DNA of 64,000 nucleotides from an uncultured Gammaproteobacteria bacterium (GCA_964537315.1 CAZIAP010000001.1:221938-285937), one strand, 5' to 3'; positions 1 to 37,778 are shown, counted from the first letter of the stretch. Notes: a model not told the origin generated them from the letters alone. Numbers and translations: made by a program.

Positions 1-1049
1 ACACCATCTACTCCATACCACGTAGCATTAGCAGGATTTGTTGAGCTTGTATCGCTAGGGTCGTAATAATAATAAGGGTTAATATAATTTTTATTGATAT
101 CAAATGACCATTCAGCTTTAGAATATTTATTAGTAGGAGCAACTATAGCAGTAAAATTTTGAATTTGTGATGAAGTAGATGAAGATTGCCTTATTCCAAA
201 ATTCCTGGTTGTATCATCTGATAATGGCACAGAAACGGGATTTGTGGTGGTAGCACTATAACCTGAAGGAAGGTTTAGTGTAACAACATATGTTCCAGGC
301 AAAAGCTGATTGAAAGTATAAGTTCCACTGCTATTTGTCGTCGCACTCTGTCCTGTGTTTAGTGAAACTGTTGCCCCGTTATACCCACTCTCACCAGTAT
401 CTCTAACGCCATTATTATTGCTGTCTACATATACTAACCCGGATAAAGTAAACGTCTCAATTGTAACCTGGCTTCCTATTAATTGGCTTGATTGGGTAAC
501 GAGATCTTGACCTGAAGACACAATGTTAGTATCGGTTGACGAACCTGATGCAAACCGAAATGAAACGCTCGTATTTCCCTCTTGTAATGCCTTCATGCGC
601 ACAACAGCTAGTTGAGTTTGACCGTTGTACGGTGTGGTAAGATAACCCTGACTCCAATCAAAGGCTGAAGCGCCAAACTCAATCACCCCATTTTGATTCG
701 CGCTTGTAACTACTGCGTTCTGATTAAATACACCATTTTGTCCTACAGGTGAAAATGATTTTAACGAAGTTGCACTTTGGGCAGTAGGAGTAATTCCTAC
801 GACCTCTAAGCGGGTGTTATCGAACTCAATAACCACATCTATAGCTTCAACACCTGCGTTATCTGTGTTGATCGTAATTGGAAGATCAAACTCTTGTCCT
901 GGAAATGTATTAACTTGAGGTAACCGCAGAGTTGCATTCTCTCCAGCTGCGAAAACAGGATTTATATTTACCAATTGGAATAATAAACCATAGATAATTA
1001 CACTAAGTATGAAAAAATGTTTTATATTTTTTCGAAATAAATTATTCAT
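1..1049 (-). CDS. Partial (5' end in window, continues past position 1) secreted surface protein: signal peptide, cohesin-like domain, then a Cna-B/SdrD-B-like module
   Basis: Not in the supplied ORF track because it runs off the left edge. ATG at 1049-1047 (minus) lies 1 nt after the TAA (1053-1051) of the upstream giant gene. My translation begins MNNLFRKNIKHFFILSVIIYGLLFQLVNINPVFAAGENATLRLPQVNTFPGQEFDLPITINTDNAGVEAIDVVIEFDNTRLEVVGITP... which is a cohesin-like beta-sandwich signature. It continues ...[75 protein letters not shown]..., an SdrD-B/Cna-B-type module paralogous to the one in the giant protein. Confidence 0.6.
   Translation of the reverse strand, partial: MNNLFRKNIKHFFILSVIIYGLLFQLVNINPVFAAGENATLRLPQVNTFPGQEFDLPITINTDNAGVEAIDVVIEFDNTRLEVVGITPTAQSATSLKSFSPVGQNGVFNQNAVVTSANQNGVIEFGASAFDWSQGYLTTPYNGQTQLAVVRMKALQEGNTSVSFRFASGSSTDTNIVSSGQDLVTQSSQLIGSQVTIETFTLSGLVYVDSNNNGVRDTGESGYNGATVSLNTGQSATTNSSGTYTFNQLLPGTYVVTLNLPSGYSATTTNPVSVPLSDDTTRNFGIRQSSSTSSQIQNFTAIVAPTNKYSKAEWSFDINKNYINPYYYYDPSDTSSTNPANATWYGVDG
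480..1000 (-). other. Cohesin-like domain in the gene immediately downstream of the dockerin protein
   Basis: FDLPITINTDNAGVEAIDVVIEFDNTRLEVVGITPTAQSATSLKSFSPVGQNGVFNQNAVVTSANQNGVIEFGASAFDWSQGY...TQLAVVRMKALQEGNTSVSFRF shows a cohesin-type 'jelly-roll' pattern (…a.aG.tv.vpi...n..gv.a.dv.i.fD...LevvgI..). Confidence 0.55.
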
Positions 1050-1050
1050 A

Positions 1051-4000
1051 TTATCTACCTGATACAACCTGAATTTGTGACGGTTTTGTAACATAGATCA
1101 CCGGATCACCTTGATACCATTGTATTTTTCCGGTTACCCTTATCTTTTGACCAACTTTGTAGAATTTGTCCGGAACTGTAGGAAAGTTGCTCCAGTTACT
1201 TTTCATTATTCTGACCAATGTATATCCAGTGTGAGGCTTGGTAAATCCAAGGTATATTGCCAATCTGTTATTTAAGATTTCATTGATTGTGCCTTCAACT
1301 GTTTTTGTTTGTCCGATATGATTCGCGGCTTGAGTATAAGGAATTACTTTAGGTCCTGTTGCGGGTCTATCCTCTGCTTTGTGGTTTTCAATAACTCCAC
1401 CAGATAACGTAGTTGCTCCTGCAACTTGCTGCCTCTGCTGAGCTGCAGCAGTTGGATTACCGTTTTCTAGTGCTACAATAGCACCGTCAAGACTCCTATA
1501 ATAAATCGTATTTTTACTTACTATCCATGTCGCATATTCTTCCCAATACGCATCATGAACGAGTCCCTGATTCCAATAAATATAAAAAGCTGTAGGTCCA
1601 AATCCACGTGGATCACCATCTTGCTTTGTGAGCGTATTACAATAGTGGCTCGTACTAAAGGTAGAACAACCACCGACTGATGCATTTGTAGACCCCACGA
1701 TTTGAGGAGTATGTGTTGTTGTAATAGGATTGGCAAATGTCCCTACTGTAGCTGATCTATTGTTTATTTTAAGAGATAAGCCTGCCATCCAGTGAGCACC
1801 AAATAGATAATCACCAGCCATAGTTACATTTGGCTGTTCATCGGTTAAGAGAAATGGTCCAGGCCAAGTAGTATCGCCTGTTGTTGAATACTTAATCCAC
1901 CGTACATACCCCGGCTCTAAGCCAGAAACGGTTGTGTTGTCCAAAACCATTTCACCAAAGTGTGAATCCCATCTTCCGTCAAACCTATCCATTCCTCTAA
2001 TAATTGTATAAACTACTTCTTTATTGTCAGGGAACTTCTTCACTACTGGTTGAGGTCCCATAGGCTGATAACCACCATTACCATAACCTCCGTGTCCAAT
2101 ATTTGCTATGAAAGGAACGTTACCATTATCAAGGTTCAACACAAACAAGGCTTGTTGATCAGGTCTAGATTGCAAATTTGACCTGATTTGAGTATTAGAA
2201 GTTGGCCACGGACTCCATACTCCATATAATGTATCCCAATCAAGCCTCATCTTCATCAATACATAACCGTGCTGCTCTGCGATTACCGGCCACCCATAGC
2301 TAAACTCATTTGGTGTACCTGCTGTACGGACAGAAGGTTTGACTCTCCAGGACTGTGATCCGTTTGAATTATTTATTGCGTGGACATAAAGATCAGCGGT
2401 TCCGACCACTACTCTGTCGCGCAATAACGAATATGATGGTGGAGTATGCACAGTTGAGTTTGCATTATATGACCAGATCTGAGACATATTATTTTTATTA
2501 ATGGCGTATACTCTGGAACCCATAGAGAAAAATACCCTATCTGAAATTACTGCAGGTGGTAATGCAAGACTACTGGTTGAACCTGAGGGGAATTGCGCAG
2601 AAACACTGCCGTTTGATGCGTTTAATTTATAAAGTGTTCCATTCGTTGAAACTACAAATACAGATGATGTATCCCCGTCATAAGCAACTGTAGAGTTTAC
2701 AGTTCCTACATTAGTAGCATTCCAGGCAACAGAGCCATTTGATTCATTCAATCCAAACACTCCACGAGATCCCGCTGCCACATAGACTCTTCCTCCCCCG
2801 GTAACTGGCTGTACATTTTTTGGCAAACTCGATTTACCCGCTGATACTGCACCACTGGCATTTGGTCCATTCCAAGCCCATTTCCATTTCCAAGGTGTCT
2901 CAACAACCTGAGAAGTATAACCTGTACGTTGCGCATCGTGTGCGTGTTGAGTCCACTCATTTGTTGTTGCTGTAGGCGGAGAGGTAGGTGTAGGCGAGTT
3001 CTGCGATGACGTAGGCGTAGGTGGATTTGAGATAAAATTAGATAAAACTACTGCCAAGTCCATACCATTAATTTTCCCGTCAGCATGCTGATCAAGTAAT
3101 CCTGTCTGAAAATTACCATAGTTTTGAAGTACTAACCTAATATCCTGTGCATCTACAGTTCCATCATTATTTACATCTCCATCACCTTGCGAAGATGATT
3201 GTTGTCTAATACCGAAGTGTTGAGTGGTGTTGCTTGAGAGTGAAACCGATACAGGATTGGTAGTGGTAGAAGTATATCCAGAAGGTAGTGTTAAGGTAAC
3301 TGTGTACGTCCCTTGCAGTAAAGAAGTGAATGTGTAAGTTCCACTACTGTTTGATGTAGCACTCTGTCCAGTGTTTAGTGTAACAGTAGCCCCATTGTAC
3401 CCTGCTTCCCCCGTGTCTCTGACTCCATTACCATTGGAATCTGTATATACTGTACCTGTCAGGGCGTATGTCTGTGGAGTTTGAGTTGGAGTTGGTGTAT
3501 TAGTTACTCCTGACCCTCCAGTTGAATATGAAATTGTTAATTTAGCTGAGTTTGCAGCTCCAGCTTCATAACTTGCAAAATCCCACCACCAACCGGTGGC
3601 TGATCCGTTGTCAACCAACAATAAACTCAGTGCATTCCCACTTTGCCACCCAGTTCGGTTTACTATCTCTTGTACAACGGATGTGATTTGAGGAGGTTTG
3701 TTTAACGATGTCGATGACATCCAGATATTAGCGTTCATTGTTTCTGGGGCTGAGTTGTAGTTGGCAAACGCAGTTGTTCTGCTCCTACTTCGCGGTAAAC
3801 TGTTTGTGCTAAACACCGCACTATTATTACTTGCCTCTCCATAAATGCGTATCTTAACATTATTCAAATAATCTCCCCCCGGCCACACCTGTTGCCAATC
3901 AATTGATGCACTATGAATGGTTGCACCTTGTGGTACAGCTACATTAGCAAATCTAAATCCTGCTGTAATTAGTTGTCCGCTTTCGTCTTTTCCTCCCCCA

Positions 4001-6747
4001 AAGACTGTACTACCTGTATTTAATGCATTACTGCCTGCTACATCATACCCGTCACTAGTACCACCAGGTACTTGTACTGTGACTGTATTTGTACCCGCGG
4101 GAGTGGGTGTAGCAGTCAAAACTACTGTTGGGGTTGGCGTTGGAGTAGGAGTTGAAGTAGAGGTAGGAGCAGTAGTTGGTGCAGGTGTAACAGTAGGACC
4201 TGAATTCCTGCTAACCAGAATTACCCAATCTTGAGATGGAGTACTCGGAGGGCTACCAAGCGAAACAAATGATCCTCCGTTAATGGTTTGTGATGAACCT
4301 TCAAATGCTCCTGTACGCGGATTATACCAGCGCTTCTGAAATTGTCCTGAAGTACCCGAAAGATTAAGTGACCCGGTAGTGGACGCATTAGGCAAGTAGA
4401 CTGCATACACTTCTCCGCTTTTTACAAACACTTGTTGATTTGAAGCTCCAGAAACTAATCCATCGTCTGGCCACATCTCCCAAAAAGGAAGATTTTCTTG
4501 CATAAATTTTCTCGCGTACCATGTATATCTCCATATAGCCTCATAATCTCGGAAGTTTTCTAAAGCTTGATCTTGATCCTGCATAAACCAATCTATCTGT
4601 CCGCCAGAAAGGTAAGTCGGCCACAAGAGATCCTTTCTTTGAGCATCCATGTTATCGGTATAAGTGGAGCGTAATTCGTCCATTGAGATGGTAATTGGTT
4701 TACCGGATTGGTCTGAACGATCTCTTAGTTTCTCAACTTCCCCTCCTCTTCCGGCGTCACCACCTGAATATTGTAATGAGGTCAAATCAAACGGATTATT
4801 TGCTCCTAAACTAAAAAAGTGCTGCCAAGATACATCAGGTGTCGTAATTTGGTGCACTGTAACAGGATGCTTATATGGATCAATCTGTTTTATGAAGTTT
4901 GCGAACTGAACTACAGTTTGAGGAGAAAGCGGATACATAAAGTCGTATTCTTCAGATATATTCCATTGCAAACTATTATGATGTCCAAATCTAGCAATAA
5001 GTTCACGGTAATAAAGTTTCCTCTGATTTCCCAGCGTCCCATCATCCAACGCACGTTTGTTCTGCTCTTCTGCCTCATTCAATACGAAATGTAAATGAAT
5101 ACCTTTTTCCTGCATATAGGTAAACACTTCATCCCATTGACGTAACTTACTGATGTCATAATGAACAACATCATTACTAGTCCAACCTTCCCAATCCGTC
5201 ACATTCACAAATGGAGCAGTATCCTGACCGTCGCCACCTATATTCATGGGTAAGAAGTACACTGAGTTTACATTTTGTGAGGCAAGATAATTAACTGCAC
5301 CAATTAGTCCTTTACCTCCATCATTACCGGTTGCGTTTAAGATAGGATTTCCATTTTGCCAGTCACCTACATGAGGCTGATACGTGTGCAAATAGTTAGG
5401 AGTGTTGTCAAATCCTGCATATCCCAATAAATTTTCAGGGCTATCTGCACCACCTTTAATCCAATACGATCCATCACGGTATTTTAGGTAATGACCACCG
5501 ACATACTCAAGTCTTCCCCATTTGAAAAATCCTGGGGCGTTCGGATCTCGGTCTACAACCGTAAACGATCCAGTTTCACCGTCAAATGACGTAGATGTTC
5601 CCGCAGTAGGACTTGTATTAACAGCAACATTGCTACCTTGTCTGAATGAAGCTGTATAGTTCCAATCTCCAGCTTCATCCGGAGTGAATTTTACTCTCCA
5701 AACATCGCCTGTGCCTCCCCCATTTCCGTCTCCATCAAAATATCCTGGTACGTTGTATGTTTTACCTGAAGGAGAAGTAAATGTTACCTGTAGGCGGTAA
5801 TCTAAAAATGGATTTGGACTGTTATCTGTCTCACTGTGCGATGGACCAGAAAAATCAATAGTAACTGGATACCACTTCCTAAGTGTTCCAGCAACCAAAC
5901 TTGAGGTTGTTGCAAACTGTTGAATAACTTGTTTTGCTTGAAACGTAAGCGACGTCGCAATCCATGATGCTGAGGGATCAATTACCACTGCTGTAGACAC
6001 TTCATTAGTATTTGATGAAAGAGAATGCAATAATGATATTGAAGTATTTGTTGAGCTATCGTCACCAGATGTGCTACTCTGACTCGCTAATGTGCTACCG
6101 TCACTAGGAGATGAAAACGTTACGCTGTTCCCTGCAGTAACTGCAGTGATGATAAACTGATCATCTGAAGTTGGAGTAATGTTATTAGATGGCGAAATAC
6201 TATCCCCGTTGGAACTTGAAGTTACACCTAATGGGTTATCTGTCTCAATGTTGTCATACTCAGCAATAGTTATCGCAGACTTTGTGTCTCCACTAAACTC
6301 AAATTTCACCTCTCCACTTTGTTGCGGAGAATTAGCATAATAATAAACCCACTGTTTTAAGTTGTTCCCGTTATTATTCTCAGCTGCTTTCACCCATCCT
6401 TCAGGCTCACTTGTCACTGATATCGCATCGGATGATTGAGAATTTGATGAAACTGCAGCGATAAGTAAGTTACCTTCAGTTGTATTACTAGACCATGATG
6501 CAGAAATAGAATTAACCTGTCCACTACTACTAGCAACTGTATACTGTACTAAATTTGGTGGTAATGCTTGTGCTCTGGTAGGAGATTTGGGAAACAACCT
6601 ACTCATAAGATTATCCCCAAAAGGAAGAGTGAGAGCTAGAGCGATAAAGAGTAGTAAACCGAAGGCGGAAAGAGATAAAGCAATTTTTATTTTTTTATTT
6701 TGCTTTTCAAGATAATCCCAATAAGTATTGGATTTCTTTTTTGACAT
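1051..6747 (-). CDS. Giant (1898 aa) membrane-anchored multidomain surface protein: N-terminal TM anchor; beta-rich region; TIM-barrel glycoside-hydrolase-like module; PT-rich linkers; SdrD-B/Cna-B-like module; type-I dockerin; PQQ-like beta-propeller; C-terminal OB-fold-like domain
   Basis: Single uninterrupted ORF. N-terminus [44 protein letters not shown] forms a TM helix. Motifs [11 protein letters not shown]...YFDGDGNGG, then [27 protein letters not shown]...[14 protein letters not shown]...[10 protein letters not shown]...WNISEEYD indicate a GH5-clan-like TIM barrel. PT linker [21 protein letters not shown]. Module [32 protein letters not shown]...[16 protein letters not shown] is a Cna-B/SdrD-B type. 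[23 protein letters not shown]...[20 protein letters not shown] is a two-segment dockerin with calcium-loop residues at positions 1, 3, 5, 9 and 12. Repeated ..LY.LN..NGS..W blocks are PQQ-like propeller blades. C-terminal [25 protein letters not shown]...[22 protein letters not shown] resembles a tRNA_anti/BOF OB fold. Confidence 0.85.
3040..3190 (-). other. Dockerin (type I-like, duplicated calcium-binding segment) module within the giant surface protein
   Basis: Reverse complement of 3161-3187 encodes GDGDVNNDG; the second loop [12 protein letters not shown] is encoded around 3061-3100. Both segments match the dockerin pattern D-x-N/D-x-D-G-x-x-x-D/N-x-x-D followed by a hydrophobic helix. 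Confidence 0.7.
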
Positions 6748-6787
6748 GTTCGGTTAATAAATTCTAAATCTTATTAAAGTATATAAA

Positions 6788-6817
6788 TTTTTTTAAACAG
6801 TTTACAATAGGTAATTG
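6788..6817 (-). promoter_or_regulatory. Sigma70-like promoter candidate (TTGTAA-N18-TATACT on minus strand) upstream of the giant surface-protein gene
   Basis: On the minus strand TTGTAA (complement of 6817-6812) and TATACT (complement of 6793-6788) are separated by 18 nt, about 35 nt upstream of the ATG at 6747. The motif was read by eye only. Confidence 0.25.
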
Positions 6818-6846
6818 TTTGTTTGCTAAAAATTAACGTAGATCTG

Positions 6847-6918
6847 AGCGATGGAAGGGAATCGAACCCTCAACCTTCTCCTTGGGAAGGAGACATTCTA
6901 CCTTTGAACTACCATCGC
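6847..6918 (-). tRNA. tRNA-Gly (anticodon CCC), 72 nt, CCA not encoded
   Basis: Minus-strand sequence GCGATGG-TA-GTTC-AAAGGTA-GAAT-G-TCTCC-TTCCCAA-GGAGA-AGGTT-GAGGG-TTCGATT-CCCTT-CCATCGC-T folds into a cloverleaf. It has a 7-bp acceptor stem, an anticodon stem TCTCC/GGAGA with loop UUCCCAA (anticodon CCC), and a T-loop TTCGATT. Confidence 0.8.
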
Positions 6919-8013: not shown

Positions 8014-8090
8014 TGGCGGGAGTGACGGGACTCGAACCCGCGACCTCTTCCGTGACAGGGAAGCGCTCTAACCAACTGAGCTACACCCCC
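8014..8090 (-). tRNA. tRNA-Asp (anticodon GTC), 77 nt with encoded CCA
   Basis: Minus strand GGGGGTG-TA-GCTC-AGTTGGTT-AGAGC-G-CTTCC-CTGTCAC-GGAAG-AGGTC-GCGGG-TTCGAGT-CCCGT-CACTCCC-G-CCA folds into a cloverleaf. Anticodon loop CUGUCAC gives GUC; the T-loop is TTCGAGT. Confidence 0.85.
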
Positions 8091-27497: not shown

Positions 27498-28671
27498 CTG
27501 CTCTCCCAATACCTAATAAAGTAAAGCATAAAATCATAATAAAAGAATAGAAGAAAGCGTTTTCTGTAATACTCCCTGCAAAAACAGCTGTCAGAATTGT
27601 AAAGTTAAGATTAGGCAGCAACTTATTCTTCTGAGAACTTCTGTAGGCTTCTTTAAACATTGAAATAATCATGTAGATAAAAGATGCTGCGCCAATTAAT
27701 CCTGTTGTGGCAAGTACAAAAAGATAACTATTGGACACACCTGCGCCTGCGTGTGACACCTCTACTCCGCTTTGAATACCCTGCTGCGCATATCTGTATG
27801 CATTAAAACCTACACCAAAAATAGGGTGGTCTTTAAATATACTAATTGCAGTCTGATAGGTTTCTAATCTACTGTATATTGACGCAGTTCTAAATAGATT
27901 TACTCCTTCACTCACATATTCTTTTGGTAACAGAAAAATACCTGCAAGTAAAAGGATACCAGTTATCAAAAGAAACTTTAATTTTTTTTCTAATATTGAA
28001 AATATTGAGACTGATGCAATTAAAGCAAGGTAGCCCGTTCGTGAATAAGTAAGCATTATAAATACAAATGTTAGTAAAATTGCAGCGGCAATAACAAATC
28101 TTTTCCAACCAGGCTTTTCGCTACGAAACAAATAAACAAAAATCCATAACGCGATAATGAATATTATTGAGGCAAAATTCGGGTCAAGAAATGTAGAGAA
28201 TACCCGATATAAATGCTCATCCCATCCTAAATAAATTAGATTTCTAAGGTCGGGATATAGAAAGTATTGAAGTATTCCAAGTGTTGTTACCGCAAATAAT
28301 GATAATGCAACTGTTTTTATTAGAAATGATAAATCATTCTTTTTAAACAAAAGACCAATAATAGGAAATATCGAAAAAATAGTAACGAATCTAAGTAGGT
28401 ACATTGAAGAAACAACAAACTCTCTAACAGAAAGCCAATATAAATTTATGAGCAATGACATTGTTGCTGCAACAATAAAGAATAAATACGGCTTAAAACC
28501 TGTAAGTTTTACTCTTTCAACAGCTATTAAATACCATCCATACAAAACAAATAAAAGAACAGCAACATCGACAGGATAAACATATGCTTGAGGACCTACT
28601 GATATTCGAATCAATACTCCTGGAATAAAACTTAAAAAAATTCCAACGAACAGAATTTTTAGTATAGCCAT
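27481..28671 (-). CDS. O-antigen ligase / Wzy_C-domain polytopic membrane protein (WaaL/PglL-like)
   Basis: Polytopic. Wzy_C hallmarks ...LTYSRTGYLALIASVSIF... and ...HPIFGVGFNAYRYAQQ...SHAGAGVSNSYLFVLATTGLIGA. Confidence 0.65.
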   Translation of the reverse strand: MAILKILFVGIFLSFIPGVLIRISVGPQAYVYPVDVAVLLFVLYGWYLIAVERVKLTGFKPYLFFIVAATMSLLINLYWLSVREFVVSSMYLLRFVTIFSIFPIIGLLFKKNDLSFLIKTVALSLFAVTTLGILQYFLYPDLRNLIYLGWDEHLYRVFSTFLDPNFASIIFIIALWIFVYLFRSEKPGWKRFVIAAAILLTFVFIMLTYSRTGYLALIASVSIFSILEKKLKFLLITGILLLAGIFLLPKEYVSEGVNLFRTASIYSRLETYQTAISIFKDHPIFGVGFNAYRYAQQGIQSGVEVSHAGAGVSNSYLFVLATTGLIGAASFIYMIISMFKEAYRSSQKNKLLPNLNFTILTAVFAGSITENAFFYSFIMILCFTLLGIGRAVMGDK

Positions 28672-30263
28672 TTTTCTCCCCCTTGTGAATAAAGTGTTAC
28701 ACCGACTGTCTTATCACTATGCACTTCTTGCCATAACTTAAACCTTTCCGGAAGGGGCATATTGCTTGGCGCAAGTATGTAATTAAACTCATCTCCGGGC
28801 ATCACATAGGATTCATGAATAAACGGAAAGTCTGCATACCAAAGATTGTGTATACCATATACAAGCACCTTATCTTTATCAGTAATATTTTTTGAAAAAA
28901 AGCCCGTCGTATCGTAAAAATCACCAAATGAATAATTCAGGTATTCTATCAAGTACTCTTCTCGTGACTGCACTCCTGTAAGAATACCCAAAAATCGCAT
29001 ACTTGCTATACCACGATACCCAATTGATATGATTGCGATAGTTAAACCAGTAACAATTAAAGTATTCCGTATTGTTTTAATTTTTAGATGTTTGATAGTT
29101 ATGCCAACCAGCAATGAGATCACAGGAAGATATGGTAGTAAATATCTCCCTATTACTGTACTGGGAGTTACCAACCATATAAAAACACTAAATAATGAGT
29201 ATATTACTACTAACCTCTCATGTTTAGAAAAATAACGAAAAACTATAAGTAATAAAGGGAAAGAAATAATATATATCGGATTTACCGGATCTGCACCGGT
29301 AACAAAACCCTCCCACAAATTAGTAACCAGTCTCATTGGAGTAAGTGATTCTAATTGCACAAGATATAGATTGCTAAATACCGGGTATACAGGGTTACCA
29401 GTATTTAAAAATGAAAAAATAAAGTACGGTAGAGGAATAATTAGCGCAATGGTTATATACATTAGTGATATCTTTATGCCTTTTTTTATTTGAGTACGAA
29501 ACAAGTAAATTATCACAGGAATTAAGATTACAAGTGAACCTAATGCGATCAGTTTCGTCGAGATAGCTAACCCCGCCATAATAGCAGACTCTACAAGCCA
29601 TAGTGTTTTTTTCTCTTTTATAAATAATATAATCCCATACACTGCCATTAACTCAAAAAACGTTCTACCTAAATCTATATATGCAGTTGTAGATAGCCAA
29701 GCTACTACTAAGTTAGAGGAAAAAATTAATAAAACAAAAAATGATAGTTGTTGAGATAAAAATGTGCGAGAAATTTTATAAAGTACTATTAAAGTTAGAA
29801 TTCCAAATGAAAAATGGATTAATTTTGCAGGCACCGAACTATTCAACATCGCTGCAGGAATATAAAGCATATCAATAAGCTTTGGCATCAGCGAATAATA
29901 ATAAAGCCCACCGGGAATATAAAAAAATGACTGATTCTCAACAAAGATTTTCGGGATCGTCAAGTGGTACCACAAAGCGTCAAAAGACACCTCAGGCATA
30001 AGAGTACCAATAAAGTTCAGCATCCAAATTATTGTTAATAATAAAATAGAGATTCTTATGAAGACATTTGATTTTTTTATAAATGAGATCAAATCAATAT
30101 CTCTCCAATTTATACCTGTCCCTTCACGTCTATACCACCACAGAATGCTAATTAACCAAGCTACAGTTAGTAAAATCACCGATATTGGATATAAGAGGTG
30201 TGCAACGCCTAATGCAAATATCCCATATGAATAAATTCCTATTAAAATGGCAAGTGGAAACAT
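28659..30263 (-). CDS. Large polytopic membrane protein, possible GT-C-fold glycosyltransferase (uncertain family)
   Basis: About 13 predicted TM helices, with a first periplasmic loop carrying acidic or aromatic residues (EVSFDALWYHL). Neighbourhood with a GT-C, GT2, Wzx and Wzy_C. No definitive motif recognised. Confidence 0.35.
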   Translation of the reverse strand: MFPLAILIGIYSYGIFALGVAHLLYPISVILLTVAWLISILWWYRREGTGINWRDIDLISFIKKSNVFIRISILLLTIIWMLNFIGTLMPEVSFDALWYHLTIPKIFVENQSFFYIPGGLYYYSLMPKLIDMLYIPAAMLNSSVPAKLIHFSFGILTLIVLYKISRTFLSQQLSFFVLLIFSSNLVVAWLSTTAYIDLGRTFFELMAVYGIILFIKEKKTLWLVESAIMAGLAISTKLIALGSLVILIPVIIYLFRTQIKKGIKISLMYITIALIIPLPYFIFSFLNTGNPVYPVFSNLYLVQLESLTPMRLVTNLWEGFVTGADPVNPIYIISFPLLLIVFRYFSKHERLVVIYSLFSVFIWLVTPSTVIGRYLLPYLPVISLLVGITIKHLKIKTIRNTLIVTGLTIAIISIGYRGIASMRFLGILTGVQSREEYLIEYLNYSFGDFYDTTGFFSKNITDKDKVLVYGIHNLWYADFPFIHESYVMPGDEFNYILAPSNMPLPERFKLWQEVHSDKTVGVTLYSQGGEKWLY

Positions 30264-30345
30264 ATACCTCCTTTACATAGTAAGTTATTTATATAAAACA
30301 CCAGTATAACTATTATCCAAAGTAAAAAAACTAGAAATAAGGTTT

Positions 30346-31803
30346 TCATTTATGACGTTCTAGAATAAAATAATCATTTATTTTGTTGTTTAGTATAAAC
30401 TCTTCATTTAAGTAATCAGAAATATTGGAGTTTTTTATATCCGTTGTAATGATAACATTGACCTTTTTTTCTTCAAGTATATCTATTATCTTATCTCTAT
30501 CATTAAAGTATTGATCTGTAATGTCATTTAGATCAGATTTGGTTGGGTTATTCGTATCAGTTATAAAATAAAGTAACGGCAAATATCTATCTACATACAT
30601 ATAATCATTATCTTTTTTTATATTATTCACGCTGGTAATTATTTGTGGTATTTCATTTGCATATTTACTTTCTACCAAAATATTAACTTTTTGACTTGGT
30701 AGATAATTGTTATTTTTTATCAAAGGAGCCTCCCACTTATAGTAACCTGAGAACAATGCCTGGTAAAAACCAAGCATTATTAGAAAAATCGCTGTAGAAA
30801 TAATGACTGACTTAAGATATTTATTACTTACAAAAGTAAGTAGTACTGCAAATGATGCTCCAGTGATAGAAATTAATGGAACTAAATGAACATAATCTGT
30901 GGTAGGTCGTATTCCAACCAGGTAGTATGCAGCTACCATAATTGGATAAACAAATAATAAATTTTTATTTCGAGTTGCTATAATAATTGCAACTAAAGAT
31001 ATAAATAGCGGCAAAGTGTAAAATAATAATTTTCCTAAAGATGGTATAAACCTATCCCAGTAAATAAAGCTTGTAGTTAAGCTATTATTTATCATAATAC
31101 GCTCCCAGGTATAGGTATGAAAATCATTAATAAATGGTATGAGAGATGAAGAGAATAATAGATAGATTATGTATATAGTTAAAGGGACTAAAAGTCCAGC
31201 TGCATATAAAATTACGTTTCTTTTCTTTTGTAAATTAGTATTAGCAAATATCGTAATAAATGAAATAATTAATATTACACCACCAAAATTTTGTTTTGAT
31301 AAGAAAGTTAGCCAAGTTGTCATCCCAGCAATAAGAACAAATGCATAATCTTTATTTGTAGCGGTCTGAAGCAAATAAATTGTCAAAAATCCTGTTAATA
31401 TTGCAATCATAACAGGCCAAATAAAGTTAATATGAAAAGGACCCCAAACAAGGAACATACTAATTGATAAAAGTAATATGTAAATACTTTTTGTAATCTG
31501 CTTAGTAATTAAAAAGACAACTAGAATTGAAGATAACGAAATTAAAAGAGCTAGTACACGCGCAGAAAAAACACTTTCTCCTAGAATCTTAAATATACCT
31601 GCGGTCAGATAAATAGACAAAGGAGTATAAACAAAATGAAAATCAAGATATGGAATTTCTCCAATTAATATTCTATGCGCAGAATTAAGTATATATCCTT
31701 CATCATGGTATATGATTCCTCTAAAATGGAAAAACAATAATGATAACACAATACATGTACCAACCAAAATACTAATATAGTGTTTTTTGATTGAATGTAT
31801 CAT
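30346..31803 (-). CDS. GT-C-fold membrane glycosyltransferase (PMT_2 / ArnT / GT39-GT83-like)
   Basis: N-terminal FFHFRGIIYHDEGYILNSAHRILIGEIPYLDFHFVYTPLSIYLTAGIFKILG matches the PMT_2/ArnT first-loop DE motif region. About 11-13 TM helices and a C-terminal soluble domain. Confidence 0.6.
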   Translation of the reverse strand: MIHSIKKHYISILVGTCIVLSLLFFHFRGIIYHDEGYILNSAHRILIGEIPYLDFHFVYTPLSIYLTAGIFKILGESVFSARVLALLISLSSILVVFLITKQITKSIYILLLSISMFLVWGPFHINFIWPVMIAILTGFLTIYLLQTATNKDYAFVLIAGMTTWLTFLSKQNFGGVILIISFITIFANTNLQKKRNVILYAAGLLVPLTIYIIYLLFSSSLIPFINDFHTYTWERIMINNSLTTSFIYWDRFIPSLGKLLFYTLPLFISLVAIIIATRNKNLLFVYPIMVAAYYLVGIRPTTDYVHLVPLISITGASFAVLLTFVSNKYLKSVIISTAIFLIMLGFYQALFSGYYKWEAPLIKNNNYLPSQKVNILVESKYANEIPQIITSVNNIKKDNDYMYVDRYLPLLYFITDTNNPTKSDLNDITDQYFNDRDKIIDILEEKKVNVIITTDIKNSNISDYLNEEFILNNKINDYFILERHK

Positions 31804-31830
31804 TGTTACATTTGTATCTCTTTCAGGATT

Positions 31831-32592
31831 TTATGTGTTACCTATACCTTTCCATAGTAAGTATAGTTTGGCGCGAACTAGAAAAGAATGAAGGCTCATG
31901 ATTACTGCGTGAATAAATCCAAGTGTTCCATCTTTATATCCTGAAAGAAACAGATAATTTTTAATAAACTTAAGTTTTGGATAACCTATTATAAATAAAA
32001 TATTTGACCGAACTTTTTTTTCAAATAACTCTTCAGCTCTTAGAGTTGAGTAGTAATTAACTTTAGATAAAAAATCAGAAATATTTTGGTGTGGATAGTG
32101 TAGTAGTTCATTTTGTAGAACCGATGTTTTACCTTTGGTATAAAATTCTTCATGAACTCTACCCTTCCACTCTCCTTTTCCTTTTTTTACAAGACGAAGA
32201 AGTTGGATTTTCCCGGTTTCTCCAAACAACATTTTTTTACCAAAGAGATGGTCTCTACGTTTTAAAAAATATCCTGATATATCATCATCCTGTGAGATAA
32301 CTTGTTGTATTTCTTTTTGTAACTCTAAAGTTACACGCTCATCAGCATCAATAAATAGTATCCATTCTCCTGAGGCCTCACTCAAACCAAAGTTTCTTTG
32401 TTTTGCGAAATCGTTTTCAAGCGGACGAACACGTACATGAACTTTTGGATTACTCATCTTTTTAATAATTGATACTGTCCTATCAGTGGACTCGTCATCA
32501 ATTACTAAAATTTGATCACAGAATAATAAACTCTCAATACAATCAGCGATCATTTTTTCTTCGTTTTTTGTAAGTATAACTGCAGTTAGCAT
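31831..32592 (-). CDS. GT2 glycosyltransferase, polyprenyl-phosphate sugar synthase-like (ArnC/Ppm1/DPM1-like)
   Basis: MLTAVILTKNEEKMIADCIESL...ILVIDDESTDRT...ILFIDADERV carries the GT-A DXD motifs. 253 aa with a C-terminal amphipathic or TM tail, typical of ArnC-like enzymes. Confidence 0.7.
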   Translation of the reverse strand: MLTAVILTKNEEKMIADCIESLLFCDQILVIDDESTDRTVSIIKKMSNPKVHVRVRPLENDFAKQRNFGLSEASGEWILFIDADERVTLELQKEIQQVISQDDDISGYFLKRRDHLFGKKMLFGETGKIQLLRLVKKGKGEWKGRVHEEFYTKGKTSVLQNELLHYPHQNISDFLSKVNYYSTLRAEELFEKKVRSNILFIIGYPKLKFIKNYLFLSGYKDGTLGFIHAVIMSLHSFLVRAKLYLLWKGIGNT

Positions 32593-32613
32593 ATGAATAA
32601 TTTTACCAAAAGA

Positions 32614-33849
32614 TTAAGATGATTTTTTAATCGACCTTAGCGTAGAGAATGAATAATAAAAAATAAACGGTACCGATACAATATAACCTATAAAGGCTGC
32701 GTATGCAGCCCCTACTACTCCATATAAATTGATCATTGGAACAATTGTAGCTAACATACCAACAAGTCCAATAAGAGTTGTCAGAGTAAGGTATTTTTGT
32801 TTTTGCATTGCAAGCAAAAATGATGATACTGAGAGTGATACTGCTCTGATTACACCAAGAACAGCAAGTACGCGAAGTACTTCAACAGCACCTAACCACT
32901 GCTCACCCAAAATTATTCTAATTATTAGCTCTGGGAATATGAATAAGATAATCCCAAATGGTAGTACAAGCATAGTAATTACAACAATTGTTCTGAAATA
33001 CGCGCGCTTAAGCCTAAAATAATCATTCGATATTTTGACATAAACAGGAAATGTTACTTTATTAATGATTTCAGCAACCTCAGTAATTGGAAGCATTGAA
33101 AAACGATATGCCATATCGTATATACCGAGTGACTGTGTTCCTAATATCCTACCTACTATAATATTGTCTCCTCTCTCAAAGCCATAATTAAAAACTGTAG
33201 CTCCGGTAATCCACTTTCCATGGTTGAAAAGTGTCTTAATATAACCCGTATTTAGTCTTAATCTTGGACGAGAAGGAAAAACTATGTATGACAGAATCAC
33301 TTCTGTTATGACTCCAGCGACTAATCCCCAAATAAGACTTATCGGAGCAGGATTCAAGGCTAGTAAGATAAATGTGACAGCGACTTCTATAAGTAGAATT
33401 ATCGTCCTAAAGAAAAATTCTTTTTTAAATTTTAGTTCTTTCTGAAAAATCACTACAGAAGGGTTTATAAATCCACGAATAAATGGAACTAAACTCATGG
33501 CATACAGGAGACTTGTTGCATCAGGCGCATTAAAGAACTGCGCAACAAATGGTGCAGAAACCACCATTACTACCGCAATTATTGTCCCGCGGACAATAGA
33601 TACAATCCAGGCAGAATCAAGATAATTTTCAATGTTATCCTTTTGTTGAACTAAAAAAACATTTACACCTGTTTCAGTAATAACCTCAACAAAGGAAAGA
33701 AGAATTGTGGTAATTCCAAATAATCCGAACTGTGCAGGACTCAAGAACCGAGCAACAACAGCCGTCTTTCCCAGAGAAACAACACGAGTTACAACACGGA
33801 ATGCAGAAAGCCAGCTAAACCCAATAATCGCAGTTTTTGTATATCCCAT
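32614..33849 (-). CDS. Oligosaccharide/polysaccharide flippase (Wzx, MOP superfamily)
   Basis: 411 aa with about 12 TM helices. Polysacc_synt-type N-terminus MGYTKTAIIGFSWLSAFRVVTRVVSLGKTAVVARFLSPAQFGLFG. Confidence 0.75.
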   Translation of the reverse strand: MGYTKTAIIGFSWLSAFRVVTRVVSLGKTAVVARFLSPAQFGLFGITTILLSFVEVITETGVNVFLVQQKDNIENYLDSAWIVSIVRGTIIAVVMVVSAPFVAQFFNAPDATSLLYAMSLVPFIRGFINPSVVIFQKELKFKKEFFFRTIILLIEVAVTFILLALNPAPISLIWGLVAGVITEVILSYIVFPSRPRLRLNTGYIKTLFNHGKWITGATVFNYGFERGDNIIVGRILGTQSLGIYDMAYRFSMLPITEVAEIINKVTFPVYVKISNDYFRLKRAYFRTIVVITMLVLPFGIILFIFPELIIRIILGEQWLGAVEVLRVLAVLGVIRAVSLSVSSFLLAMQKQKYLTLTTLIGLVGMLATIVPMINLYGVVGAAYAAFIGYIVSVPFIFYYSFSTLRSIKKSS

Positions 33850-33851
33850 TA

Positions 33852-34679
33852 TTAATTCCAGCCTTTCAGAATCATCCTTGTATTTTTGGGTGATTTATAT
33901 ATAAATATTAGCGTCTGTACAACCATAAATAGTCCATGTAATGGAAAGCTTTTTATATGCTTCTTCCCAAAATATCTCCCACTTTTTACCAGGTTATATA
34001 ACTTAACTCCCGATTTAATTCCAACTGTTTTACTCAGTTGATGATTTATTTGTACTTCCGGAACAACTACTACTTTAAAACCAGCAGCTTTTGCTCTCAG
34101 ACAAAAATCCGTATCTTCGTAATATAAAAAGAATTTTTCGTCAAAATAACCTATTTTTTCAAATACTTCTCGCTTTATTATCATACAACATCCTGAAACA
34201 TAATCTACCTCTTTAACTAATTTATTTGCTGCAGTTTTTCGATTATCATGTATTGTCCTACCTATCAAATTAGAGATACTACCGCCATAATCAAACTGTT
34301 TTTTTCCATTTTCTTGAAATTGAATAAGGGGTGCAGCAATTCCTATTTTTTTATCATTTTGCATAACATCCAATACAGGAGAGAGAAAATCACTAGATAT
34401 AGAGGTGTCATTATTGATGATTGCAATATGGCTGGAATTTTTTGAGAGTGCATGTTTTATTCCAAGGTTCACCCCACCTGCAAATCCGAGATTTTTACCA
34501 GAGTTAATTAACACTCTATTCTTGTCTGATAGTTCAGTACTTTGTATATCAATCTGGGGATCATTATTTACAACTATGAGGTTGCTGTATTTTTTTTTAA
34601 ATTTTTCTAGGGATTCAATACTGCTCTTTGTGGTTGATATATCGCCGAAATGCAAAATAATTACAGATACTTTTGTCAT
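33852..34679 (-). CDS. GT2 family glycosyltransferase
   Basis: VSVIILHFGDISTTKSSIESL...VVNNDP...GFAGGVNLG...DTDFCLR matches GT-A fold motifs. Confidence 0.75.
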   Translation of the reverse strand: MTKVSVIILHFGDISTTKSSIESLEKFKKKYSNLIVVNNDPQIDIQSTELSDKNRVLINSGKNLGFAGGVNLGIKHALSKNSSHIAIINNDTSISSDFLSPVLDVMQNDKKIGIAAPLIQFQENGKKQFDYGGSISNLIGRTIHDNRKTAANKLVKEVDYVSGCCMIIKREVFEKIGYFDEKFFLYYEDTDFCLRAKAAGFKVVVVPEVQINHQLSKTVGIKSGVKLYNLVKSGRYFGKKHIKSFPLHGLFMVVQTLIFIYKSPKNTRMILKGWN

Positions 34680-35779
34680 TATTTAAATTGTTGAATTACA
34701 CCATATACACTATTTGCGCAACGTTCCCAGGTATAATCTGACACTTTTGATTTTCCTTTTTTTGTGAGCTTTATTCTTAGATCATTATTTTTGTGTAAAT
34801 CATTCATAGCTTGAGCTAACGCTTCAACATCGGTCGGTTCGACAATAATCCCTGCCTTTCCTACAACTTCTGGTAATGACCCACCATTGGAAGCTATTAC
34901 TGGGCATTCTAATGCCATAGCTTCAACAAAGGTTAGTCCGAATCCTTCGTATAAACTTGGGGAAACAAATGCAATAGCATTTCTATACAAATCAACTAGT
35001 TCATCATCCCCTGCATAACCAATAAAGGTTATTTTTTCAATGGATTCCTCGGATAGCGTACTAAGTACGGAGTCAATTTCAGGGTCAATCCATTTATCAC
35101 CGCCTATGAGCAGCAACTCGGTATCATGTTTAGTCTTTGACAAGAATAAGTCGAATGCCTTTATGAGAGCAGGAATGTTCTTGATTCGTTTTAAAGATCC
35201 TACATATAAAAAGTAAGGATTTCTTTTAATTTTTTTAACTTCTTTGCCTTGAGGAAATCTTCTTACTCCTAACGGAATAGCAATTACCTTATTTGAAGCA
35301 ATCTTGAAATATTTAATTACATCTTCTCTAGTCTTTTCAGAAATCGAGATTATGATATTTGATTTTTTTACTAACTCAGCAGTATTACTATGCAATTTCT
35401 GATAGTCTCCTGGATACGCAAAAGGATATTTCTCAAAAGCAAGATCATAGACAAACCCAATCGTTCTAATATTTGGAGACATTCGGGGAGGAGCTGACTG
35501 TCCTAATGCAAGAAATAAATTAACTCTGTCTCTGACCATTCTAATAGGCAACCATATCTTTAGCCACCCTTTCATAGGTCTCACAATGACATTACGCATA
35601 TTAGGACCAAGCCTCTTCATCAATGACTCATCTATTGGATAAAAACTGTAAAGATAGTACTTATTTTCGGTATCAATTTTACTAAGCTCCAATAGCAAGT
35701 TTTTAGCAAAATTATATACACCAACTTTAAGTCGTTTGTCCTTTACCCCTAAACACCCAGCATCTACAGCAATGTTCAT
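34679..35779 (-). CDS. GT4 (GT-B fold) glycosyltransferase
   Basis: FVSPSLYEGFGLTFVEAMALECPVIASNGGSLPEVVG gives the E-x7-E motif and GT-B C-terminal domain. Confidence 0.8.
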   Translation of the reverse strand: MNIAVDAGCLGVKDKRLKVGVYNFAKNLLLELSKIDTENKYYLYSFYPIDESLMKRLGPNMRNVIVRPMKGWLKIWLPIRMVRDRVNLFLALGQSAPPRMSPNIRTIGFVYDLAFEKYPFAYPGDYQKLHSNTAELVKKSNIIISISEKTREDVIKYFKIASNKVIAIPLGVRRFPQGKEVKKIKRNPYFLYVGSLKRIKNIPALIKAFDLFLSKTKHDTELLLIGGDKWIDPEIDSVLSTLSEESIEKITFIGYAGDDELVDLYRNAIAFVSPSLYEGFGLTFVEAMALECPVIASNGGSLPEVVGKAGIIVEPTDVEALAQAMNDLHKNNDLRIKLTKKGKSKVSDYTWERCANSVYGVIQQFK

Positions 35780-36939
35780 ATATTTATACCACTATACTTA
35801 ATTTTTGTTACATTTTCTAACACGTTTAAAAATGATCGTGCAGCATATTGTGATGAAAATCTTTGACTTACCGATTGCCTAGCACTAATGCCAATCTTTT
35901 TATATTTATCGTTTTTAGTAAGATTATTAATAATATCTATACTATTTTTAATACTAAATTTATCATACATTACACCAACATCAGATGTAACCAACTCTCT
36001 ATTCCCTCCGATATTTTTTGTAATAATAGGAATTTGCATAAAAGCAGATTCTATCATGGCGAGAGATACACCTTCATGGTGCTCTGTCGGCAAAAAAAGT
36101 ATGTCAACTGCTTGTAAGTAATCATTTACATTATTTACTTGACCAGTAAAGTAAAAATTACTCTTTAAATCTTTAACAATATTTTTTACATTTTTAAGTC
36201 TTGGTCCATCACCTATAACTATAAAGAAGTAAGAATGATCTTTCTTTAACAAAGTTTTAGCTACACTCACAAATCGATCAATCCCTTTTTCTGTGTTTAC
36301 ATTTCCAACATATCCAATACAAAGTTGAGACTTTGCTATCTTAAGAAGATTGCGCATTTTTTGACGTTTTATTCCAACCCTTTTAAATTTGTCGGAATCA
36401 ATGCCAATGTAACACGCTACTATTTTAGTAATATCAACCCCACCTACTTTTAAATCATTTTTAGTATTTTTTGAAACCGCAATTATTTTATCTGCTTTAC
36501 TACTCATAAATTTATACCAAAGCTTAATGATTATTGATCTTTCGCTTGAAAATATTGATTCATGCTCTTCCCATACAACAATAAATCCCTTATTTTTCAA
36601 AATTGGTGTTAGAATTAATTTTTCTGTCATTGAATGCAATATAATAATATCTGGTCTAAACTTATTCGCAAATTTCAAAATATAAGAGTAAGCTTTTTTA
36701 AAACTTCTAAAGTTTTTTACTAGTTTCAAAAGTTCCTTTTTCGTACCAATTTCAAAAAGAGGATTTCTAAGCATTTTGCTATCAAGATTACATGCTTTTA
36801 GTTCTTTAAGAAACTCCTTATTATTTGAAAAAGTAACTGATTTAAGTATTGAGTGTTCCTTAAAGTAACTGAATAAGTAAATGATGTACTTTTCAGTGCC
36901 ACTGTATCCATTTGTAATTCTTATATTCAATACTTTCAT
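35776..36939 (-). CDS. GT4 (GT-B fold) glycosyltransferase
   Basis: LFLPTEHHEGVSLAMIESAFMQIPIITKNIGGNRELV gives the E-x7-E motif. Overlaps its neighbours by 4 nt. Confidence 0.75.
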   Translation of the reverse strand: MKVLNIRITNGYSGTEKYIIYLFSYFKEHSILKSVTFSNNKEFLKELKACNLDSKMLRNPLFEIGTKKELLKLVKNFRSFKKAYSYILKFANKFRPDIIILHSMTEKLILTPILKNKGFIVVWEEHESIFSSERSIIIKLWYKFMSSKADKIIAVSKNTKNDLKVGGVDITKIVACYIGIDSDKFKRVGIKRQKMRNLLKIAKSQLCIGYVGNVNTEKGIDRFVSVAKTLLKKDHSYFFIVIGDGPRLKNVKNIVKDLKSNFYFTGQVNNVNDYLQAVDILFLPTEHHEGVSLAMIESAFMQIPIITKNIGGNRELVTSDVGVMYDKFSIKNSIDIINNLTKNDKYKKIGISARQSVSQRFSSQYAARSFLNVLENVTKIKYSGINI

Positions 36940-37679
36940 TGTTTTTGAACTACAATACAGTATCCGAGTGGAGCTTGAGAATTTTTATTAAAAATATACA
37001 ACTTACTTAACAAGAAAAATGAAAACATAATCACTGTTTGCACTAACCTTTTAGGGTACTTCAGTAAGTATCTATTAAGAGTTGGTTCTAAAAAAACTGA
37101 AATTAATTGTCCTATTGTAATTGCCCAGTTTCCCCTTTCTTTTATGTATACAACTTTAAAATTACTTTTCTTAGCTAGTTCTTTTAACCCGTATTTTGTA
37201 TATCTAAAATAATCTTCAGGTTCTTCATGCAAAGACCAAAATAATGGTAATGTGAGTATTGCATAACCACTTTTTTTTAAAACTCTGTGTATTTCATTCA
37301 TCATTTGCTGTGGATTGCTTACATGTTCTAATACTTGTGTAGAAATGACAGTATTAAACGAATTATCCTCTATTGGCATTTTCAGTGCAGAACCTTTTAT
37401 ATCCCCACCGTTTTTATCTAATCCTACATATTCTTCAACTATGTCTTCAAAAAGAATTTTATATGGTTTTGTTCCACATCCAACATCTAACAATTTTCCA
37501 TTTGCATATTTTCTTGCTTCAATCAACGAGTCAAGAATTGAGTCTTTTTCTAGCTTATATGGAGAGAACCACGATACTCTTAAATTATTAAATTTTTCCA
37601 CTTTATTTTTCATTATTTTCAACTTACTGTACCTGTATGTATTATACAGTAAATTTAGGTAAGTCGGCTCCATATACAT
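36936..37679 (-). CDS. Class I SAM-dependent methyltransferase (Methyltransf_11/23-like)
   Basis: LLDVGCGTKPY motif I; ...TVISTQVLEHV post-I/II motifs. Confidence 0.75.
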   Translation of the reverse strand: MYMEPTYLNLLYNTYRYSKLKIMKNKVEKFNNLRVSWFSPYKLEKDSILDSLIEARKYANGKLLDVGCGTKPYKILFEDIVEEYVGLDKNGGDIKGSALKMPIEDNSFNTVISTQVLEHVSNPQQMMNEIHRVLKKSGYAILTLPLFWSLHEEPEDYFRYTKYGLKELAKKSNFKVVYIKERGNWAITIGQLISVFLEPTLNRYLLKYPKRLVQTVIMFSFFLLSKLYIFNKNSQAPLGYCIVVQKQ

Positions 37680-37778
37680 GTTGTTTATTAGTTCTTAAAT
37701 TTATAAATACAGGATGAAAATTATAAATAAATTCCTATATTGACAATTGAATAAAAAAACACTAATACTAAAAATATC

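Follow-up and report, generated by a model that had tools for sequence, protein, structure and literature searches.

Do two giant genes that adjoin one another in the genome of an uncultured bacterium encode partners that dock onto each other at the cell surface? The question is raised by a 64,000-nucleotide stretch of DNA (GCA_964537315.1 CAZIAP010000001.1:221938-285937, recorded as coming from an uncultured Gammaproteobacteria bacterium; the whole stretch is called the window below), at one end of which gene A encodes a modular surface protein with an internal dockerin and gene B, which is cut by the window edge, begins with a cohesin. A sequence-only reading of this DNA had proposed that the two proteins form a cohesin-dockerin complex. 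Our analysis makes it plausible that A and B dock in the manner of a cellulosome pair. What the sequence and its models show are the modules and how they fold, an operon-like gene junction and a gene neighbourhood that recurs in other loci, and we put at slightly better than even, roughly 0.55, the probability that a helix-anchored A captures secreted B by a calcium-dependent dockerin-cohesin contact, with the binding, anchoring and enzyme activity that such a capture would entail.

The arrangement we envisage would begin with the co-transcription and translational coupling of A and B, which would yield two giant modular cell-surface proteins. A would be kept in the membrane by a single N-terminal helix and would display a hydrolase of clan GH-A type (GH, glycoside hydrolase) along with spacers, a beta-propeller and, internally, a type-I-like dockerin. 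B, exported by the Sec pathway, would present a type-I-like cohesin first, and behind it a spacer and then a GH5-like module. With calcium present, the dockerin of A would bind the cohesin of B and so tether the secreted, enzyme-bearing B to the cell; the resulting surface complex would have two enzymes and could act on a polysaccharide. A dockerin of a different sequence class, seen in the B protein of a relative, could in addition link the pair to other proteins with cohesins, among them some that are anchored in the membrane.

The cohesin and the dockerin

The Pfam Cohesin model (PF00963) matched residues 41-175 of B with 37.5 bits (cut-off 24.1, E 3e-9), and when the structural model of the module (predicted local distance difference test, pLDDT, 96-99) was compared with the PDB by Foldseek, all of the top 50 matches were solved cohesins, of types I, II and III. 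Type I matched best (E 6e-10, target-normalised template-modelling score 0.72-0.75), and the Archaeoglobus non-cellulosomal cohesin was among the fold matches. Sequence identity to solved cohesins is 12-17%, and a phmmer search of B against the PDB sequences returned no cohesin, which was found by the fold search only. The sequence-only reading had named an unrelated immunoglobulin (Ig) fold as one result that would undo its proposal; with 50 cohesins in 50 matches, a generic Ig fold was rejected, and the signal peptide and cohesin that it had assigned to B were both recovered, the former as a hydrophobic leader.

On its sequence and its predicted structure we accept the corresponding segment of A as a real dockerin, although an internal and asymmetric one. 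It consists of two tandem segments of ~22 residues, each with a 12-residue calcium loop and then a helix, and loop 1 is canonical, with D/N/D/D/D at positions 1, 3, 5, 9 and 12. The loop Asp columns are invariant in the family alignment. We also modelled a fused chain, in which the B cohesin was joined by a Pro/Thr linker to the A dockerin and aligned with 48 natural family members; in it the dockerin forms two helices (model residues 219-227 and 247-259) with pLDDT 82-91. Could the motif be a chance match? A strict calcium-loop pattern, run through the six frames of the 64-kb window, matched at the two dockerin loops only, and the A dockerin is 87% identical in an ortholog, whose own precomputed dockerin match is marked as faint. 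As the pattern is unique in the window and kept in the ortholog, we rejected chance as an explanation.

The junction of the two genes and its conservation

Genes A and B are co-oriented and a single nucleotide separates the stop codon of the one from the start codon of the other, which agrees with the TAA-T-ATG junction read earlier. No terminator-like site was seen between them. The window holds exactly one cohesin and exactly one dockerin, and these lie in the two adjacent genes. A protein identical to A (P0010) is encoded on a 452,838-bp NCBI contig; an exact look-up of protein A returned no record. At a related locus, L054, an A ortholog (P0011) that is 84-89% identical stands in the same order of LysM protein gene, A and B, with the same TAA-T-ATG junction.

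Protein A: an anchor and a predicted hydrolase

The transmembrane segment that the sequence-only reading placed at the N-terminus of A corresponds to a single hydrophobic segment after a Lys-rich N-terminus; no other segment of A reaches 1.6 on the Kyte-Doolittle scale. The segment is likely to be a signal-anchor membrane helix, to judge from its hydropathy and position, and would serve to hold A on the cell. The hydrolase-like barrel and PQQ-like propeller of that reading also stood, the barrel in a confident structural model and the propeller by its Pfam match. By sequence the propeller matches BamB structures (E ~3e-5), with no cofactor implied, and it is 36.6% identical to the propeller of gene B in the L054 relative.

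What kind of enzyme might A carry? The DUF5060 module, the barrel and the Collagen_bind_2 sandwich were modelled, with 51 homologs, as a single folded unit (pLDDT 94.9, predicted template-modelling score, pTM, 0.93). The features that define clan GH-A, namely a (beta/alpha)8 barrel, a Glu acid/base after strand 4 and a Glu nucleophile where strand 7 ends, are all found in this model, in which Glu600 comes after strand 314-317 and Glu691 ends strand 407-412. Conservation among 52 homologs follows the same residues: Glu599 (model residue 320) is invariant, Glu600 (model residue 321) is kept in at least 90% and the Asp-Glu at Glu691 is invariant. A profile of the hydrolase family matched GH140 apiosidase with E 4e-13, in its C-terminal half only, and none of the Pfam GH family models matched A. 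Because the model fold, the apiosidase profile match and the placement of Glu600 and Glu691 on catalytic motifs point the same way, we read the unit as a hydrolase module of clan GH-A type, in which the Glu/Glu pair is intact and enzyme activity is predicted. Its subfamily is large, uncharacterised and common among Planctomycetota and Bacteroidota; more than 120 homologs share 40-63% identity with the module.

Protein B and its ortholog

Residues 1-293 of B are 68% identical to a B ortholog of 2975 residues encoded at L054. After its leader this ortholog has one cohesin (34.5 bits), seven SdrD_B spacers, a GDSL-like module, a propeller, the 190-residue module that in the window is found in A, and a ManDH5-like module (E 9e-14), and it ends in a C-terminal dockerin of its own (31.2 bits). 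A family hidden Markov model (HMM) found one cohesin in B and one in the ortholog. Residues 196-339 of B are 56% identical to residues 1571-1714 of the ortholog, a stretch that leads into the ManDH5-matching module, and the last 54 visible residues of B probably begin a DUF5060 module, as judged from this alignment. Since the ortholog carries enzyme modules, a single cohesin and its own dockerin, B is not a scaffoldin, and we rejected that role for it; the "minimal scaffoldin-enzyme arrangement" suggested earlier does not hold for a protein that continues into a DUF5060/GH5-like module and whose ortholog is a multi-enzyme giant.

We sought the continuation of gene B by several routes. Look-ups of the neighbouring LysM and PolX genes gave only short Logan contigs (SRR7082968, SRR7082976), which are broken inside gene A; JGI metagenomes contained no exact match to a 40-mer taken at the start of the window; and a scan of genome contigs for the rest of B gave SdrD_B look-alikes only, from Planctomycetota and others.

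The two loci also differ in how their modules are distributed. Residues 785-1221 of A (window 3085-4395) are 63% identical to residues 1265-1699 of the B ortholog (L054 10490-11794), and gene A of L054 has an unrelated segment of 150 residues where A of the window holds the 190-residue module and spacer. Window B, for its part, appears to be without ortholog residues 308-1570. Because this part of A matches the relative's gene B, and not its gene A, the alignments indicate module shuffling between genes A and B. Within the window, the SdrD_B spacers of A (3190-3480, residues 1090-1186) and B (174-464, residues 196-292) are 74% identical as protein, which suggests a recent duplication or gene conversion within the locus.

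The cohesin family and its gene neighbourhoods

Word-indexed protein searches were nearly blind to relatives of the B cohesin (they gave none, or 3 proteins), and the family was instead collected by exhaustive HMMER searches at E<=1e-3, which returned 363 cluster representatives, the best at 48% identity. The family has a consistent layout: 132 of the 150 closest members have an N-terminal hydrophobic leader, the cohesin match starts at about residues 30-90 in nearly all of these 150, and an LPXTG-like motif occurs in one.

Is the association of a cohesin gene with a dockerin-enzyme gene peculiar to A and B? In three further independent loci, genes for dockerin-bearing carbohydrate enzymes either immediately precede a cohesin gene of the family or are one gene removed from it. 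L056, from a Candidatus Levybacteria genome, has a gene for a DUF5060-hydrolase-CBM96-dockerin protein, then 87 nt, then a gene for a cohesin and Big_7 protein, and a pectate-lyase-like dockerin protein is encoded there too; the dockerins on the two enzymes have one signature in common, as is the case in cellulosomes. L058-60, from groundwater, have genes for a CBM4_9-PKD-DUF5060-dockerin protein and a dockerin-pectate-lyase-like protein before a cohesin-dockerin gene and a weaker cohesin. In L061-63 a GH44-dockerin gene is followed by one for a Big_1 protein with a membrane helix and then by a cohesin gene. The sequence-only reading had called a tightly coupled cognate pair with catalytic cargo unusual, which overstates the case because such clusters are recurrent in this protein family and a precedent exists in Cellulosilyticum lentocellum, where an adjacent pair binds (PMC13487519).

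The dockerins themselves can be compared. That of A is closest to the enzyme-borne dockerins of L058 (45% and 39% identity), and the dockerin that ends the B ortholog most resembles those of cohesin-family proteins (65% and 63%) and is 39% identical to that of A. This small sample hints at two dockerin specificity classes.

Two observations on related loci stand apart. The pectate-lyase-like beta-helix protein at L058 6074-7705 carries its dockerin at the N-terminus, right after the signal peptide, and not at the C-terminus. In the JGI loci L065-L069 we found arrays of small secreted proteins, of the types cohesin plus dockerin, cargo plus dockerin, cohesin only and cohesin plus membrane helix, in operon-like runs of 3-6 genes (L065 172-5230, L068 10073-14205, L069 9827-13632). 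From their gene content these L065, L068 and L069 arrays look like a dedicated assembly system, of which we found no description.

Do A and B bind each other?

How far do these observations carry the docking of A onto B? Several of them weigh against it. The Dockerin_1 match (PF00404) scored 22.9 bits (E 1e-4), which is exactly the gathering cut-off of 22.9, so that of the two Pfam checks proposed in the sequence-only reading that of the cohesin was passed with room to spare and that of the dockerin at the very threshold. Loop 2 reads D, H, D, N, D, and because of the His at position 3 the earlier term "textbook" for this duplicated dockerin was slightly generous. The module is internal, between the Ig spacer and the propeller, and not terminal. 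In the fused model both modules fold confidently, but its pTM is 0.66, about what would be expected from the cohesin alone (165 of the 262 residues). The hydrolase module of A has 12-17% identity to characterised or solved GH5 and GH140 enzymes, no carbohydrate-binding module was found in A, and B is seen as its N-terminal 349 residues only, the C-terminus lying past the window edge. Finally, among the 150 closest relatives of the cohesin, no fewer than 76 also have a dockerin-like segment at the C-terminus of the same chain.

The cut-off score, the non-canonical loop 2 and the internal position would also fit a quite different function, in which the "dockerin" of A is an EF-hand pair that binds calcium but no cohesin and serves to stabilise or space the modules, and the cohesin-like module of B is an adhesin or an Ig-type spacer. 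Dockerin-like repeats without known cohesin partners do occur in other giant proteins (bioRxiv 10.1101/2023.11.21.568195). We nevertheless consider such a function quite improbable, given that the segment is so well conserved in the ortholog and resembles the terminal, enzyme-borne dockerins of related loci, that a bona fide cohesin fold is encoded by the very next gene, and that the two modules occur together in several loci. The main alternative is that both modules are real but are not partners of each other. The B cohesin would then bind "VNIFDLSxLL"-type C-terminal dockerins, B's own included, to build head-to-tail chains or a surface matrix, the A dockerin would bind a cohesin elsewhere, for example a membrane-anchored one, and the adjacency of the genes would reflect shared regulation only. 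Since no less than half of the closest relatives have a C-terminal dockerin of their own, the B cohesin may indeed prefer that class, and the sequence of the B-ortholog dockerin, nearer to cohesin-family dockerins than to that of A, leans the same way. A candidate for the other cohesin exists as well: L054 encodes a second Cohesin-annotated protein (a weak precomputed match) with a C-terminal membrane helix, and similar genes are found in L065 and L068. It is difficult, however, to reconcile separate partners with the conserved, tight junction of A and B, with the repeated adjoining of dockerin-enzyme genes and cohesin genes, including those for dockerin-free cohesin proteins (L056, L061), and with the presence of a single cohesin in the window, and we regard them as rather unlikely, if well worth keeping in mind.

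If A does capture B, what would the complex be for? In an episymbiotic lifestyle it might attach to the wall of a host or prey cell, or attack that wall, and not serve the breakdown of environmental plant or algal polysaccharide. The LysM protein gene immediately upstream of A and the failure to find a cellulose-binding module would suit such a role, and there are parallels in a dockerin-domain protein that is essential in an epibiotic Saccharibacterium (PMC10633639) and in giant dockerin-type proteins linked to predation in Omnitrophota (bioRxiv 10.1101/2023.11.21.568195). Yet the hydrolase module has widespread homologs in free-living bacteria that degrade polysaccharide (such as Planctomycetota and Bacteroidota), where they are fused to sulfatases, lyases and binding modules, and the related loci carry GH44 and pectate-lyase-like enzymes, and for the complex of A and B we think a host- or prey-directed role unlikely. 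Looking beyond the single locus, one could speculate that the pair is one node of a lineage-wide, self-assembling surface system, in which secreted proteins, a large family of leader-cohesin-cargo-dockerin design, would be chained to each other and to membrane-anchored cohesins or dockerin carriers. The scaffold so formed would keep giant enzymes that act on carbohydrates at the surface of ultra-small cells; the dockerin carrier would be the anchor, an inversion relative to cellulosomes, and the scaffold might serve on host-cell surfaces. We offer this as conjecture and would be somewhat surprised if it held in full.

The surroundings of the pair in the window

On the minus strand, the order of genes is tRNA-Asp, the LysM protein gene, tRNA-Gly, A and B, the last running to the window edge; the coordinates of these and of the modules are collected in Table 1.

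Table 1. Positions in the window of genes A and B, their modules and nearby sites (residue numbers are those of the respective protein; ORF, open reading frame).
Feature	Position	Strand	Basis or remark
Gene B, N-terminal 349 aa, cohesin-bearing, cut by window edge	1..1049	-	translation
B: likely start of DUF5060/GH5-like module, residues 296-349	1..164	-	inferred from ortholog
B: SdrD_B Ig-like spacer, residues 204-292	174..440	-	Pfam, 58.6 bits
B: cohesin module, residues 36-200	450..944	-	Pfam PF00963
B: signal peptide, residues 1-35, ...NPVFA/AG	945..1049	-	hydrophobic segment at residues 9-30; cleavage site inferred
TAA-T-ATG junction of A and B	1047..1053	-	read from sequence; same in L054
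Gene A, 1898-aa modular surface protein with dockerin	1051..6747	-	ATG ORF and translation
A: C-terminal region of ~100 aa (~residues 1800-1898)	1054..1350	-	conserved; insignificant OB-fold hint only, E 0.12
A: PQQ/BamB-type beta-propeller region, residues 1262-1725 (Pfam core 1312-1479)	1573..2964	-	PQQ_2, 60.1 bits (cut-off 27.6)
A: internal dockerin, residues 1188-1241, two EF-hand-like loops	3025..3186	-	Pfam PF00404
A: SdrD_B Ig-like spacer, residues 1098-1183	3199..3456	-	Pfam PF17210, 51 bits
A: ~190-aa module without family, residues 895-1085	3493..4065	-	no Pfam match
A: C-terminal beta-sandwich of hydrolase module, Collagen_bind_2, residues 766-845	4213..4452	-	Pfam PF12904, 29 bits (cut-off 22); in confident model
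A: (beta/alpha)8 barrel, clan GH-A-type glycoside-hydrolase-like module, ~residues 400-765	4453..5550	-	
A: Glu691 (SMDELR), candidate nucleophile	4675..4677	-	aligns with "GEP" Glu of apiosidase 8t9w
A: Glu600 (WNISEE), candidate acid/base	4948..4950	-	aligns with Glu of "NE" motif of 4n0r
A: DUF5060 Ig-like module, residues 289-369	5641..5883	-	Pfam PF16586, 79.9 bits; beta-sandwich in model
A: Ser/Thr-rich N-terminal region, residues 60-280	5908..6570	-	without Pfam match; conserved in ortholog
A: sole hydrophobic segment, ~residues 20-45, after Lys-rich N-terminus	6613..6690	-	Kyte-Doolittle maximum 2.41 at residues 22-40
Promoter-like site TTGTAA-18-TATACT, between tRNA-Gly and start of A	6778..6807	-	consensus scan, 9/12 matches; weak
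tRNA-Gly(ccc)	6846-6918	-	upstream of A; one side of LysM gene
tRNA-Asp(gtc)	8014-8090	-	other side of LysM gene

The rest of the window is ordinary housekeeping (PolX, MurT/GatD, GatA/B, DnaE, ATP synthase), together with ParB, FtsW/FtsA, Mur ligases and a polysaccharide-synthesis cluster. Surface-polysaccharide synthesis genes lie in a low-GC island at ~27500-37700 (28-34% GC, against ~38% elsewhere), which contains an O-antigen-ligase-like Wzy_C protein, PMT_2, two GT2 and two GT4 proteins, a flippase and a methyltransferase. At 37779-39902 on the plus strand is a gene for a 707-residue protein with a partial GH130-like match (beta-mannoside phosphorylase family) and a Peptidase_C39_2 domain, an unusual fusion. 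The closest named homolog, P0012, comes from a Candidatus Levybacteria genome, which falls within the candidate phyla radiation (CPR), and because of this homolog we consider that the bacterium is probably a CPR member.

Comparison with known systems

Is this, then, a cellulosome? A non-catalytic scaffoldin with multiple cohesins is not what was found, there being one cohesin in B and one in its ortholog, which has enzyme-like modules besides. Dockerin-bearing enzymes are present, in A and, as GH44, pectate-lyase-like and DUF5060 enzymes, in the related loci. No CBM3, SLH or LPXTG turned up in A or in what can be seen of B, and there are membrane helices instead. The pair thus fails the tests of a bona fide cellulosome, yet it shares the docking principle. 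If A and B bind, that principle would organise, in an uncultured lineage, surface proteins that are very large and bear enzymes, in a geometry unlike that of cellulosomes, with a membrane-anchored dockerin carrier, cohesins on enzymes and both modules in one chain. Two largely unexplored families are exposed in any case, the cohesin family (at least 363 cluster representatives) and the widespread DUF5060-type hydrolase subfamily, and both offer clonable targets for binding and substrate assays. The gain is incremental, not conceptual, because minimal or non-cellulosomal pairs and Microgenomates modules are already in the literature. Peer et al. are said to have catalogued, in 2009, cohesins and dockerins that occur outside cellulosomes in all domains of life.

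With the clostridial type I pairs (CipA and the enzyme dockerins of C. thermocellum; CaCohA2-Doc0917, PDB 6kgf), A and B share the cohesin beta-sandwich fold, a dockerin of duplicated EF-hand loops on an enzyme, and the extracellular location of both proteins. The differences are considerable. Here there is one cohesin per protein in place of a multi-cohesin non-catalytic scaffoldin, the dockerin is internal and on a carrier with a membrane helix, the cohesin carrier is itself enzyme-bearing, and the enzymes are not GH48 or GH9 cellulases and come without a CBM3, SLH or sortase signal in what was searched. That the dockerin carrier A is the anchor is likely, which would reverse the classical scheme.

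Another parallel is the adjacent single-cohesin and single-dockerin pair ClcC/ClcD of C. lentocellum, which binds and enhances the activity of the GH5 cellulase (PMC13487519). There too the genes are adjacent in one operon, and the dockerin, with asymmetric repeats, is on a clan GH-A (GH5) enzyme. ClcC, however, is a small CBM3-X2-cohesin protein of scaffoldin-like type and ClcD a 58-kDa cellulase with a C-terminal dockerin, whereas A and B are both giant and multi-modular, with an N-terminal cohesin and an internal dockerin; and binding, demonstrated for ClcC/ClcD, is predicted for A and B. Other reports concern Microgenomates-group CPR bacteria (Ca. Shapirobacterales, Ca. Roizmanbacterium), for which cohesin and dockerin genes were reported and read as cellulosomes (PMC9123182, citing Geesink et al. 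2020). These have in common with our locus the presence of cohesin and dockerin domains alongside glycoside hydrolases, and probably the lineage and a groundwater-type habitat as well; the parts of these reports available to us give domain annotation and expression, and do not describe gene-pair architecture, a family-wide cohesin-plus-dockerin design or anchoring.

The combination of a cohesin and a dockerin in one chain, which we saw in the B ortholog and in at least half of the family, is also known from ScaA-type adaptor scaffoldins (PMC4959524) and can be compared with the A. fulgidus cohesin 2xdh, but the family described here has a single N-terminal cohesin right after the leader and variable cargo, including enzymes. 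For the hydrolase module of A, the nearest points of comparison are clan GH-A hydrolases that contain DUF5060, namely BVU_0362 (4n0r), the GH5 beta-mannanase ManDH5 (9gmj) and the GH140 apiosidases 8t9w and BT_1012, to which sequence identity is 15-17%; the module here stands for a large uncharacterised subfamily. What sets the present locus apart from these systems is an internal dockerin on the partner that appears to be membrane-anchored, a cohesin on an enzyme-bearing giant, the joining of both modules in a single chain, seen in the ortholog and in a large part of the family, and the lineage to which they probably belong.

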